Below are positions 40,001-43,000 of a DNA stretch of 47,283 nucleotides, one piece after another (positions within the stretch are counted from its first letter, which is position 1; every line of letters starts with the position of its first letter). Source of the DNA: a virus (Duplodnaviria > Heunggongvirae > Uroviricota > Caudoviricetes). The stretch spans positions 1-47,283 of the IMG/VR virus record IMGVR_UViG_2897375277_000003. One strand, 5' to 3'. The position numbers are program-made.

Positions 40001-43000
40001 GCGGTGATGTCATTGATGTGATTCATGCCATTGAATACAGAACTGATAATGCTGTATCGATGTTTGGCGGACGACCAGCCAATCACATTAAAGTTATCAA
40101 CGTTCGTGGGGACAGTATGTGTCCAACCATTGAGCCAGGAGATCTCATCTTCGTTGATGTCAGTATCAATCAGTTTGATGGAGATGGTATCTATGTATTT
40201 GGTTTTGATGATAAAATTTATGTCAAACGACTGCAAATGATACCTGACAAACTACTGGTGATTTCTGATAACCAGATTTACCGTGAATGGGGAATTACCA
40301 GCGAAAATGAACACCGGTTTATGGTCTTTGGAAAGGTCTTAATCAGCCAGTCACAAACCCTTAAGCGACACAATTAACCCTTACCTCCTCATCAATTAGC
40401 CACCCGAAGGTGGCTTTTCATTACCCATAAGATTGCACATCTCGCAATAAAAGGACTTGCATAATGCGCAACTTCATTTTATCTTTCTTTCCAGACCAAC
40501 AAACAAGGTACTAACAAAATTTGGTTGTAACACGGCGTATGGCACATGCGTCGTTAGCGGTCTGGGGACGTTAAAGGGGACAATCCACTCCTTGCTCGGG
40601 CAAACAAACCAGGTAGCCGGAATGTGCAAGTCAATGATGATTCTGATAAGACGCCTAACCAGCGTGGCGGTTCGGTTTGACACCTGGGAAGAGACCAGGG
40701 TGCAACGATGAGGGCATTTATGGAACCGCGACAAAGTGTGGTGCCGTAACTGGCTAAGTGCTCTCAGCGTTGTGGTGAATGCGCAGGCTGATGCGCGAAA
40801 GACATTGCAGCTATTGCGGAAAAGAGCTGTTCGGCGGGGCAATTAAACGCCCGTGAGAGTCTGAAATAACCGCAAGCCGGAGATCAGCACCGGTCACCAC
40901 AACAGCCACTGCTTTGGCGGTACCAGTTTGTACACTTGCTTCCGGCTGGTACCGCTCTTTTTACAAAACAGAGAAGAACATCATCGGACGACGGGCTCAT
41001 AACCCAATCCATCCGGGCGGCTGCCACCGCAGGTGTTCTTCTCTGTTTTGTGGAGAAACTAATCGGCCTTGCAGGGTCGATATGATGAGGAGCAGCAAAA
41101 TGGCTAGCGAACGCAGTACTGATGTGCAGGCATTTATCGGGGAGCTGGACGGCGGCGTATTTGAAACCAAAATCGGCGCAGTTCTCAGTGAAGTCGCTTC
41201 CGGTGTGATGAACACGAAAACCAAAGGTAAGGTCTCACTCAACCTGGAAATCGAACCATTTGATGAGAACCGTGTGAAAATCAAACACAAACTCTCATAT
41301 GTTCGCCCGACTAACCGTGGGAAAATTTCCGAAGAAGACACCACCGAAACGCCGATGTATGTCAATCGCGGTGGTCGCCTGACTATTCTGCAGGAAGACC
41401 AGGGACAATTACTGACTCTTGCCGGTGAGCCTGACGGAAAACTCCGCGCAGCAGGTCATTAATATCGTTCTTAATTAACTGATTATTTATCTCATCACTG
41501 AATATCTTTATATAGTGAGGACTTATTATGTCTCAGAACTTAGACGCAACCGCAATTAATCAAATCCATGCTCTTATTTCTGCTCAGGGTGTTAATGAAA
41601 TTATCAGTAAGATTGGTGCCGATGCTGTGGCATTGCCTGAGAATTTCCGCATTCATGATCTGGAAAAATTTAATTTAAATCGCTTCCGTTTCCGTGGTGC
41701 GCTTTCCACTGCCAGCATTGATGACTTTACCCGTTATTCTAAAGATCTTGCAGATGAAGGCACCCGCTGCTTTATCGATGCCGATAATATGCGAGCCATC
41801 AGTGTGCTTAACCTGGGTACTATTGATGAACCAGGTCACGCAGATAACACCGCCACTCTCAAACTGAAAAAGACAGCACCGTTCTCTGCCCTGTTGTCTG
41901 TTAACGGCGAGCGTAACTCCCAGAAGTCACTGGCAGAATGGATTGAAGACTGGGCCGACTACCTTGTAGGCTTTGATGCTAATGGTGACGCTATTCAGGC
42001 AACAAAAGCGGCTGCGGCTGTCCGTAAAATCACGATTGAAGCAAACCAGACCGCTGATTTTGAAGATAATGACTTCAGCGGCAAACGCTCCCTGATGGAG
42101 TCTGTCGAAGCGAAGACCAAAGACATTATGCCAGTGGCATTTGAATTTAAATGCGTTCCGTTTGAAGGTCTGAAAGAACGTCCGTTTAAATTACGCCTCA
42201 GCATTATCACTGGCGATCGTCCTGTACTGGTTCTGCGCATTATTCAGCTGGAAGCGGTGCAGGAAGAAATGGCTAACGAATTTCGTGATCTGCTTGTTGA
42301 GAAATTCAAAGACAGCAAAGTAGAAACCTTTATTGGTACTTTCACCGCCTGATTTCATTACTGCAAATGTCCCTGCGGGGGCATTTATGGAAACGTAATT
42401 AACTCAATAATCACCGGATGGTGAGGGCTTCCTTTTACCAGAATTCAGCGCGGTGCAGTGCATATACGTGGAGAACAAAATGTCATTTATTAAAACTTTT
42501 TCCGGGAAGCATTTTTATTATGACAGGATAAATAAAGACGACATCGATATTAACGATATCGCGGTTTCCCTTTCAAATATCTGTCGCTTTGCCGGTCATC
42601 TTTCGCACTTCTACAGCGTCGCCCAACATGCGGTGCTTTGCAGCCAGCTGGTGCCGCAGGAATTTGCTTTTGAAGCGTTAATGCATGATGCAACAGAAGC
42701 GTATTGCCAGGACATTCCCGCTCCACTGAAACGCCTTCTTCCTGACTATAAACGGATGGAAGAAAAAATAGACGCCGTAATCCGTGAGAAATACGGGTTA
42801 CCTCCTGTTATGAGCACGCCAGTGAAATATGCCGATCTCATTATGCTGGCAACCGAACGCCGCGATCTCGGGCTTGATGATGGCTCTTTCTGGCCTGTAC
42901 TGGAAGGTATCCCGACGACAGAGATGTTCAAAGTTATTCCACTGTCACCAGGCCATGCCTACGGGATGTTTATGGAACGTTTTAACGAGTTATCGGAGTT

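Follow-up and report, generated by a model that had tools for sequence, protein, structure and literature searches.

In phage lambda, the 6S transcript made from pR′ to tR′ is a short RNA ending at a terminator that heads a long phage operon, and the leader of N, which forms a long and nearly perfect hairpin ahead of the first pL-operon gene, is cleaved by RNase III. Stable RNAs are also made from phage tRNA operons, such as the species 1 and 2 RNAs of T4, and lambdoid phages usually carry tRNAs and morons behind the repressor gene or ahead of the lysis genes. The C4 antisense RNA of P1/P7 (RF01695) is released from a longer transcript as an RNase P substrate, reportedly described as such by Hartmann et al. 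in 1995. Here we analyzed the interval 40419–41099 between the repressor gene cI and the early-left gene yfdP of a lambdoid prophage of the mEp460/SfV/cdtI type, contained in a 47,283-nucleotide stretch of Caudoviricetes DNA (IMG/VR record IMGVR_UViG_2897375277_000003, positions 1–47,283) that is called the window below. The likeness of this interval to lambda 6S and to the N leader is one of layout only, and it contains no Q/qut or N/nut partner.

One RNA of the interval has been described before. The small RNA (sRNA) sRNA-17 was mapped by rapid amplification of 5′ and 3′ cDNA ends (RACE) and by Northern blotting in an mEp460-type prophage of E. coli K1 RS218 (Sun et al. 2020, Front Microbiol, PMC7719688). 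It was seen in the lysogen, was repressed by ArcA, had no match in Rfam, was handled as a trans-acting sRNA and was linked to virulence phenotypes of E. coli K1, and BLASTN placed it only in Escherichia, Shigella, Salmonella and mEp460 (PMC7719688). In the same work yfdP gave ~0.5 reads in the wild-type lysogen and rose by 2^6.6 upon deletion of sRNA-17. The ends in the supplementary alignment, 5′ GTTGTGGTGAATGCGCAGGC... or GTTGTGGTGAATGCGC... and 3′ ...GGTACCGCTCTTTT (PMC7719688), match positions 40769–40961 of the window. This segment is the published sRNA-17, a real small RNA, which bears out for 40769–40961 the small-RNA option of an earlier interpretation of the window from its letters alone (hereafter the sequence-only reading). 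The mapping showed that the plus strand is transcribed, and that the RNA starts at the foot of the closing stem P1 of the element we call module B and stops at the U run of a terminator. The sRNA-17 paper (PMC7719688) describes neither the fold and its kissing loop nor the hypervariable arm, the occurrence in tRNA slots or the wider distribution over Proteobacteria and virulent phages reported below; the fold and distribution of the family give this RNA a structural and evolutionary frame.

Organization of the interval

We read the interval, with a probability of about 60%, as the non-coding head of the early-left unit of an N-less phage of the mEp460/SfV type, comprising operators and pL, RNA modules, a terminator and a leader. 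Its elements follow each other in the order cI terminator, two predicted operators with the putative pL, module A, module B, terminator, Y-shaped leader (module D), small hairpin and the Shine-Dalgarno (SD) sequence of yfdP (Table 1); yfdP, yfdQ (DUF2303) and then yfdR continue on the plus strand. Identity to mEp460 was 97% over the interval and 100% over 40745–40915.

The interval is non-coding. It contains mechanical open reading frames (ORFs) of 122 amino acids (aa) on the minus strand, 84 aa on the plus strand, 47 aa and 49 aa; a Pfam search of these frames returned zero matches, and only two short ones matched PHROGs, both of unknown function. Among close relatives, the substitutions in the 122-aa frame were distributed 15/29/23 over codon positions 1/2/3, without a third-position excess, and its cdtI counterpart overlaps yfdP by 188 nt. 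Distant relatives showed +2-nt and +20-nt indels in the 49-aa plus-strand frame, neither of them a multiple of three, and the RefSeq/PGAP annotation of E. coli chromosomes leaves the interval blank. The G+C content of the interval is 52–55% versus 35–45% in cI, with positive GC and AT skews, and the resulting G- and A-rich plus strand explains the long open frames on the minus strand. The claim of the sequence-only reading that the region between cI and the early-left operon is poor in ORFs is thus upheld by the Pfam, codon-position, indel and PGAP evidence. So is its statement that no N-like gene is visible, as ORF and domain searches of the interval showed none; a conserved coding gene, the finding it had named as contrary to its view, did not emerge from the coding tests on the mechanical ORFs. 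Among the three functions it had left to choose from, the protein-binding site (the palindromes behind cI) and the small RNA or structured leader (40769–40961 and 40958–41080, respectively) both held, and the put-like antitermination element was not supported.

The module B family

Module B has a common layout in all its relatives: stem P1, an AAU linker, stem P2 (GCGC-AGGCUGAU-GCGC), an unconserved arm of 12 to ~190 nt, and stem P4 (GCCGG-AGAUCAGCA-CCGGC) abutting the 3′ strand of P1. The window copy conforms to it, with a 7-bp P1, the AAU linker, P2, a P4 that abuts P1, and complementary loops. We found module B in more than 200 phage and prophage sequences across Proteobacteria. The 22-mer GGTGAATGCGCAGGCTGATGCG, present once in the window, had exact matches in at least 120 IMG/VR contigs and in 111 species-representative genomes, ~100 of the latter with complete P4 and P1. 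These genomes belong to Enterobacterales, Aeromonas, Pseudomonas, Halomonadaceae, many Betaproteobacteria, some Alphaproteobacteria and a few metagenome-assembled genomes of other phyla, and each carries one to three copies of the module. Among phage records, 192 matched module B, and its conserved 5′ and 3′ ends recurred in T1-like, P22-like, Ackermannviridae, Erwinia, Aeromonas, Pseudomonas and Stenotrophomonas phages.

Because the insertion of 12 to ~190 nt makes a MAFFT-based covariance model unreliable, covariation was counted on 87 distinct cores from which the variable arm had been excised. In these cores 95.1% of the cells were paired, a percentage raised at P1 and P4 by the parsing rules considered below, compared with 27–49% when the partners were slid against each other. 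Double changes were present in 14 of 23 pairs, and none of 500 shuffles performed as well. Pairs 3–9 of P1 were never broken, which defines a stem of 7 bp, and the two outer pairs were often unpaired. All five kissing pairs showed double changes, and a search for altered P2 loops yielded members whose P4 loop was altered correspondingly, giving the variants GUCGA/UCGAC, GCCGA/UCGGC (twice), UGCGAU/AUCGCA, GCGGG/CCCGC and GCUCA/UGAGC. The P2 stem itself is replaced by the compensatory GCAC/GUGC in the module B of phage P1. A class-II module with the same P1 occupies the same slot in cdtI (locus L004, 2756–2874), where P2 reads CCGCG-AAAUGG-CGCGG, P4 reads GGUUG...CAACC, and the loops are again complementary (AUGG/CCAU); the cdtI orf40 on the opposite strand overlaps both this module and yfdP. 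G·U pairs, which would be A·C on the other strand, occurred at many positions of module B. The analysis of covariance across relatives proposed in the sequence-only reading showed that the paired arms of modules B and D covary.

No catalogued family accounted for these RNAs. A whole-window search of Rfam 15, a check named in the sequence-only reading, gave no gathering-score match in the interval, nor was there a family match at E ≤ 10 on 40200–41300; the best in-region match, mir-3617 (25.8 bits against a threshold of 107), fell on the long leader hairpin. Short members of the module B family searched alone against Rfam returned only a sub-threshold RydB-like match on P4. Our literature search found no paper on the fold or the family, and the core sequence strings had no match in it. 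Taken together, module B represents a very widespread, uncatalogued and structurally well-supported family of tRNA-shaped phage RNAs with a loop-loop helix and a hypervariable arm, which appears to be new.

Layouts of self-cleaving ribozymes (hammerhead core CUGAUGA...GAAA, hepatitis delta virus-like nested double pseudoknot, twister, pistol and hatchet) were considered and rejected, as inspection showed the strands of module B to follow one another in a different order and the Rfam search was negative. The P4 hairpin GCCGGAGAUCAGCACCGG (40876–40893) resembles the central hairpin GCCGGAGAUAAGCGCCGG of the K-12 sRNA RydB (RF00118; 13.7 bits, E ~1, sub-threshold; rydB compared at locus L600, 1214–1281, minus strand), and a RydB-type loop, AGAUAAGCA, is carried by the mini variant of module B in phage P1. 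Judged from these sequences, RydB may be a chromosomal relic of the module B family.

Likeness to tRNA and C4 RNA

Like tRNA, module B has a 7-bp acceptor-like stem that runs into a 5-bp T-like stem (12 bp; compare the acceptor/T minihelix), a 2–3-nt linker to a D-like arm of 4–5 bp, a loop-loop contact that forms an elbow, and a place in tRNA arrays on the strand of the tRNA genes. Unlike tRNA, it has no anticodon arm, no T-loop consensus and no conserved G18/G19, and its loop contact is a Watson-Crick helix of 4–6 bp. Neither ARAGORN nor the Rfam tRNA model (RF00005) detected module B, and the ARAGORN scan of the window for tRNA and tmRNA found none. An encoded CCA, as ACCA after P1, was seen in only 3 of 84 members, and U, a preference that counts among the tRNA-like traits, precedes the 7-bp stem (position −1) in 56 of the 84. 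C4, also a small RNA of phages, resembles module B in that its two ends pair into a closing stem and in having two internal hairpins and GGUG.../...CACC termini; it differs in that its hairpin loops pair with the target mRNA and not with each other, and in having no hypervariable arm. The C4 model (RF01695) had no match on 40200–41300 even at E ≤ 10.

tRNA slots, arrays and cassette exchange

Module B lies 3′ of tRNA-Thr in P1-like plasmids. The leader CUAAGUGCUCUCAGCGUU is found 5′ of tRNA-Arg in typing phage 9 and 5′ of module B in the window, indicating that module B occupies a tRNA slot. All 30-odd tRNA genes within 1.5 kb of a module B at 14 viral loci were co-oriented with it, and in genomes 17 were co-oriented and 4 opposite; the tRNA often started within tens of nt of the module B 3′ end. 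Terminator-like sites downstream showed a strand bias as well, with 36 of 214 members having one on the same strand versus 8 on the other. Across 99 viral and 111 genomic loci, the recurrent contexts were, on the upstream side, a cI-type repressor and, on the downstream side, lysis genes, yfdPQR, RecT or RdgC; the commonest were a cI-type repressor 1–2 kb upstream on the same strand, as in the window, and lysis genes just downstream.

In phage P1 (AF234172; locus L008, 495–1200, plus strand), one tRNA-like and three module-B-like elements are found in the 730 nt that separate trnT from tciA, all on the tRNA strand, and these RNA elements overlap the annotated minus-strand genes plp and upl. 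Module-B-like elements form arrays with tRNAs in P1, an arrangement that appears to be new. BLAST against phage genomes resolved the interval into blocks that also occur in unrelated phages, a mosaic of mobile RNA modules that the sequence-only reading had missed.

Several single loci belong beside these arrays. Klebsiella phage UPM 2146 (Ackermannviridae; locus L009) has ~2.6 kb without an annotated gene at 410–3044, with a module B at ~1505–1610 and several tRNA-like pieces that have good T arms and were not called by ARAGORN (for example 1063–1135 and 2040–2110); the region looks like an island of non-coding RNAs. The variable arm of one module B (locus L086, 3978–4026) holds a tRNA without an anticodon arm (Rfam tRNA, 34.2 bits), and that of another (locus L122, ~580–660) holds a sequence called tRNA-Pro by ARAGORN. 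These tRNA pieces suggest that the variable arm is a tolerant “cargo” position. In phage 1720a-02 (locus L006, ~2700–2800), modules A and B are separated by an insertion with two T-arm-like motifs, GGUUCAAUUCC and GUUCGAUUCGGAC, which add to the tRNA-like pieces of this leader. Where YfdP was 100% identical between phages (loci L404–L483), at least eight combinations of modules were seen 200–900 nt upstream of yfdP, the exchanged pieces being modules A and B, the class-II module and a “UGCUGUGUGUAGUCYUGGC” module. This diversity ahead of an identical YfdP identifies the leader as a recombination hotspot with cassette-like exchange.

Module A

Module A, upstream of module B, recurs directly 3′ of trnI in P1 and directly 5′ of tRNA-Arg in uetakeviruses. 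Only 11 sequence types of it turned up, in which two hairpins showed compensatory changes (Table 1); the loop GAAGAG of the 40683–40699 hairpin is conserved. A candidate long-range pairing, GCACAU/AUGUGC, is invariant on both sides. Module A is probably a structured RNA that travels with tRNAs and module B.

Terminator and yfdP leader

The hairpin and T run that the sequence-only reading placed at 40918–40962 proved to be a conserved intrinsic terminator at 40917–40962, in which GCGGTACCAG (40917–40926) pairs with CTGGTACCGC (40946–40955) and TCTTTTT follows up to 40962. Its position agrees with the 3′ RACE end of sRNA-17 (PMC7719688). Klebsiella, Salmonella and E. coli phages of four lineages retain a hairpin with U5–6 in front of the yfdP homologue, with unrelated stem sequences.

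The perfect 16-bp inverted repeat with a 53-nt spacer noticed at 40965–41049 was likewise found, with arms at 40965–40980 and 41034–41049, as part of a 25-bp RNA stem (40958–40982 with 41032–41056). This is the outer stem of the Y-shaped module D, which encloses an inner hairpin (40984–41016) with the invariant CGACGGGCUCAUNNCCCAAUCCA and a variable hairpin (41017–41030). Folding z-scores were −6.9 for 40905–41105 and −7.3 for 40955–41062. Klebsiella, Salmonella and another E. coli phage keep the Y-shaped element with the invariant CGACGGGCUCAUNNCCCAAUCCA, followed by GGAGAA, the small hairpin (GGCGG-UGGCAG-CCGCC in other lineages) and the SD sequence. RNAalifold on module D from five lineages predicted 39 pairs, 6 of them with compensatory changes, and one pair alternates between A-U, G·U and G-C in E. 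coli phages. Where yfdP is identical between phages, the 200 nt nearest to it hardly vary, irrespective of the sequence further upstream. The segment 40958–41080 is a conserved structured leader of yfdP homologues; here conservation and compensatory changes supported the structured-leader option. A fold conserved by compensatory changes ahead of yfdP homologues shows that the terminator and module D are RNA-level elements of the yfdP operon.

A boxA/nut interpretation of CGCUCUUUUUACA (40951–63, with the boxA-like CGCUCUUUUUA) was rejected: homologues read GCCCUUUUU, GACCUUUUU or CACCUUUUUU at this position, and the string is the tail of the terminator. No lambda-type nut, that is, a conserved CGCUCUUUA-like boxA followed by a boxB hairpin, was found in the interval, and no ORF for an N-like arginine-rich protein lies beside the putative nut, YfdP being acidic and a member of phrog_204 (unknown function).

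cI terminator, predicted operators and putative pL

Immediately behind cI, the terminator noted in the sequence-only reading was recovered as the hairpin AGCCACC-CGAA-GGTGGCT at 40398–40415 followed by the T run TTTTCATT. The operator-like palindrome it had given as about 40447–40471 could be assigned to the exact site 40457–40471, and a second site lies at 40433–40447. Compared with the operators in the cro-cI intergenic region, oL-a agreed over 19 nt at 79% and over 16 nt at 88%, and oL-b over 15 nt at 87%. The pattern TTGC-N7-GCAA occurs five times in the 47-kb window against 1.7 ± 1.4 expected, a number reached in 4 of 100 shuffles, and three of the five copies are at oR (39650) and at the two sites behind cI. 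By their sequence, these palindromes are predicted to be repressor operators at pL, and hence a protein-binding site.

In phages of different immunity the shared homology starts at ~40515, just past the operators, and the equivalent place in cdtI has a near-consensus promoter, TTGACA-16-CATAAT, ~25 nt before the homology with the window begins. These two observations place the putative pL at 40457–40485, with −35 TTGCAT (40457–62) and −10 TATCTT (40480–85), or alternatively −10 CATAAT (40460–65), as candidates.

Table 1. Positions of the elements discussed, in the window and in phage P1 (AF234172)
Feature	Sequence	Position	Strand	Basis or remark
cro	window	39327–39587	−	
cI	window	39685–40377	+	HTH and Peptidase_S24 domains
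cI intrinsic terminator	window	40398–40422	+	terminator scan; 7-bp stem, GAAG-type tetraloop, T run
predicted operator oL-a, TTGCACATCTCGCAA	window	40433–40447	.	TTGC-N7-GCAA; 15–19 nt common with oR sites 39600–39668
predicted operator oL-b, TTGCATAATGCGCAA	window	40457–40471	.	TTGC-N7-GCAA
putative pL	window	40457–40485	+	read from sequence; exact hexamers uncertain
module A, structured-RNA-like, ~250 nt	window	40515–40768	+	phage BLAST blocks; ends in leader CUAAGUGCUCUCAGCGUU
module A hairpin ACGC-CUAACCA-GCGU	window	40651–40665	+	double changes at 3 of 4 pairs (4, 4 and 1 of 11 sequences)
module A hairpin CCUGG-GAAGAGA-CCAGG	window	40683–40699	+	CG<->GC and UA<->CG in 5 of 11 sequences
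module B, tRNA-shaped RNA	window	40769–40903	+	minimum free energy fold, family covariation, single copy in window
module B stem P1	window	40771–77 with 40895–901	+	9 bp in window: 40769–77 with 40895–903
module B linker AAU	window	40778–80	+	
module B stem P2	window	40781–84 with 40793–96	+	loop 40785–92
kissing-loop 5′ partner GCUGA, P2 loop	window	40787–40791	+	pairs with 40884–40888
module B variable arm	window	40797–40875	+	
module B stem P4	window	40876–80 with 40890–94	+	loop 40881–89
kissing-loop 3′ partner UCAGC, P4 loop	window	40884–40888	+	five independent compensatory variants
sRNA-17, 193 nt	window	40769–40961	+	module B plus terminator; PMC7719688
intrinsic terminator	window	40917–40962	+	10-bp G+C-rich stem and UCUUUUU; sRNA-17 3′ end
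module D, Y-shaped leader	window	40958–41056	+	folding; RNAalifold over five lineages
small hairpin (41063–41080), then SD GAGGAG (41087–92)	window	41063–41092	+	5′ of yfdP ATG 41100
yfdP, first early-left operon gene	window	41100–41462	+	phrog_204; ATG at 41100
tRNA-like element	phage P1	~497–575	+	canonical T arm
mini module-B-like element	phage P1	575–632	+	
canonical module B	phage P1	806–905	+	compensatory P2 stem
further B-like element	phage P1	1069–1192	+	
module A	phage P1	2001–2185	+	directly 3′ of trnI

Proposed function of the RNA modules

A possible course of events can be built on these elements. Transcription from pL would produce the modules when the prophage is induced and, at a low level, in the lysogen. 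They would be excised from the precursor in the fashion of tRNA; the probable enzyme is RNase P, cutting at the base of the acceptor-like stem, a site suggested by the RACE 5′ end of sRNA-17 there. The hints at RNase P processing are circumstantial: the RACE 5′ end at 40769, the U at −1 in 56 of 84 members, and a leader as in the tRNA-Arg precursor. Termination would complete sRNA-17, and in the lysogen the same terminator would prevent expression of yfdPQR; the higher yfdP level after deletion of sRNA-17 fits either terminator loss or read-through from the cassette. Once released, the RNA may work in trans: nuclease-resistant and tRNA-shaped, it would be a carrier on which the variable arm is displayed, and would serve to regulate or to decoy a host factor that recognizes the shape of tRNA. 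Module D would act in cis on the yfdP operon, through RNase III-type processing, control of translation or polymerase processivity.

More speculatively, module B could be a new and widespread class of phage tRNA mimics, an idea that we put forward tentatively. Such a mimic would have an acceptor/T/D scaffold locked by its loops, would be processed like a tRNA, would accept nearly any cargo in its arm, and would either mislead a host factor that reads tRNA shape, early in infection and in tRNA arrays, or deliver regulatory arms. Candidate targets on this reading are tRNA-targeting immune nucleases, RNase P or the CCA-adding enzyme, and EF-Tu; if it is true, sRNA-17 and P1 plp/upl are members of the class or overlap it. 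Phage tRNA genes are now viewed as counter-measures to tRNA-targeting immunity, and a tRNA-shaped RNA without an anticodon arm in the tRNA slots of hundreds of phages, including P1, lambdoid Stx phages, T1-like phages and Ackermannviridae, would readily suggest itself as a decoy or a processing scaffold. The terminator and the Y-shaped leader, for their part, are concrete elements for studying early-left expression in N-less lambdoid phages.

Several points weigh against this interpretation of the interval and of module B. The search pattern imposed the P2 stem, and the parser required pairing in P1 and P4, which inflates the percentage paired there, not the compensatory counts. Folding z-scores of module B were modest (−0.6 to −3.3), and the variation in module A is too low to assess most of its fold. 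With no CCA, T-loop consensus or anticodon loop, “tRNA-shaped” is a statement of topology only. ORF clustering within ~3 kb of the 99 viral and 111 genomic loci revealed no protein gene that regularly accompanies module B. By RACE, sRNA-17 begins 2 nt beyond the 7-bp stem. A consensus promoter scan gave no call at the putative pL, whose hexamers are weak; the passage of polymerase through 40917–40962 in lytic growth is not accounted for; and the 96-fold rise of yfdP in the sRNA-17 deletion may stem from the resistance cassette and not from loss of the terminator.

Alternative explanations

A structured RNA made just after pL might instead bind the polymerase and give N-independent read-through as in HK022, with the leader hairpin as the foremost candidate. 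HK022 put and the RNAs of the interval are alike in being structured and in lying just 3′ of an early promoter and 5′ of a terminator in an N-less lambdoid phage: the order cI, pL, structured RNA, terminator and first gene parallels the HK022 order cI, pL, putL, terminator and nun, modules A and B are flanked by the putative pL and the 40917–62 terminator, where a put element would be expected, and there is no N-like ORF. Casjens, Smith and colleagues speculate likewise for the related N-less phage LLS (PMC12315714). Module B also recurs before long operons, after cI and before lysis genes, and module D, with its invariant unpaired nucleotides, heads the operon in several genera. However, put consists of two adjacent hairpins (~70 nt) without a closing stem or loop-loop pairing, a layout unlike those of modules B and D, and HK022 putL/putR (...CGAACGGC..GUCGGG.GC.CGGCG.GUUCA.GGAUGA...) showed no resemblance to 40419–41099 by eye, no alignment or pattern search having been run. 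The sRNA-17 3′ end at the U run of the terminator, together with the ~0.5 reads of yfdP, a gene silent in the lysogen, implies that polymerase still terminates after transcribing module B. In addition, module B resides in tRNA arrays of virulent phages and of P1, where such a role would be unexpected, and module D lies downstream of the sole terminator seen in the interval. With neither a likeness to putL/putR by eye nor an Rfam match, and with termination persisting after module B, the HK022 put-like element offered by the sequence-only reading was not borne out; module B as a put-like antiterminator is not supported, and the alternative as a whole is unlikely.

It is quite unlikely, too, that the interval is a decayed tRNA gene array, in which functionless relics of tRNA genes and spacers are carried along by recombination. 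The modules do occupy tRNA slots, T-arm-like fragments occur in the 1720a-02 insertion, in P1 and in UPM 2146, and the upstream content is mosaic among phages with identical yfdP. Against decay, the 22-nt core and P4 are nearly invariant across alpha-, beta- and gamma-proteobacterial prophages, and P1 and the kissing loops change solely by compensatory substitutions, a combination that indicates selection on structure; one member, moreover, is a stable RNA on a Northern blot (PMC7719688).

The closing stem with two kissing hairpins recalls purine riboswitches, and module B could in principle be an attenuator in which a three-way junction senses a ligand or factor and controls the terminator at 40917–40962 or the SD sequence; a terminator lies downstream in the window and in 36 of 214 members, and an SD sequence with ATG in others. 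We consider this very unlikely, since an unconserved insertion of 12 to ~190 nt sits where the ligand pocket would be, inspection revealed no alternative antiterminator helix involving the terminator arms, a nearby terminator is missing from most members, and many lie between tRNA genes.

Hardly any probability attaches to a minus-strand protein gene, the 122-aa ORF at 40474–40842 that is “hypothetical” in mEp460 and UTI89 (compare P1 plp/upl): the frame stays open in close relatives despite a 57-nt insertion, it is annotated in some phage records, and the neighbouring 47-aa ORF matches phrog_3651, but its product has no Pfam or PHROG match, it begins with TTG, the conserved blocks of the family are RNA stems and not a reading frame, and the substitution pattern, the rarity of minus-strand stops opposite a G- and A-rich plus strand, the overlap of the cdtI counterpart with yfdP and the lack of a PGAP call (see above) all speak against it. 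Several annotated “hypothetical proteins” probably overlie RNA genes, namely mEp460_036 and 037, cdtI orf40 and P1 plp/upl. An element acting as DNA, such as a recombination site, a repeat like a miniature inverted-repeat transposable element or a protein-binding cruciform, would suit a variable centre flanked by terminal inverted repeats (the P1 stem) and the mosaic spread among unrelated phages, but it is just as improbable given G·U pairs tolerated on one strand only, the prevailing co-orientation with tRNA genes, the strand bias of terminators, a mapped transcript with matching ends, and a copy number of one to three per genome rather than many.

Other observations in and near the window

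A C4 RNA (RF01695, 83.6 bits) is present elsewhere in the window at 38238–38325 on the minus strand. Together with an IsrK RNA (RF01394, 67 bits) it lies in 38238–38426 (minus strand), inside the 383-aa ORF at 37635–38786 (minus strand) that is annotated “Rha” in mEp460. The two RNAs make up a module of the early-right operon that is like P1 immI or Gifsy IsrK. The N-terminal half of this ORF is probably spurious, and the internal MATIPTLTQPEIAIVDG is the likely start of the real Rha/antirepressor. In an otherwise near-identical prophage of E. coli EJN001 (locus L001, 7079–8721), a gene for the defence-associated sirtuin Dsr1 is inserted right after yfdR.

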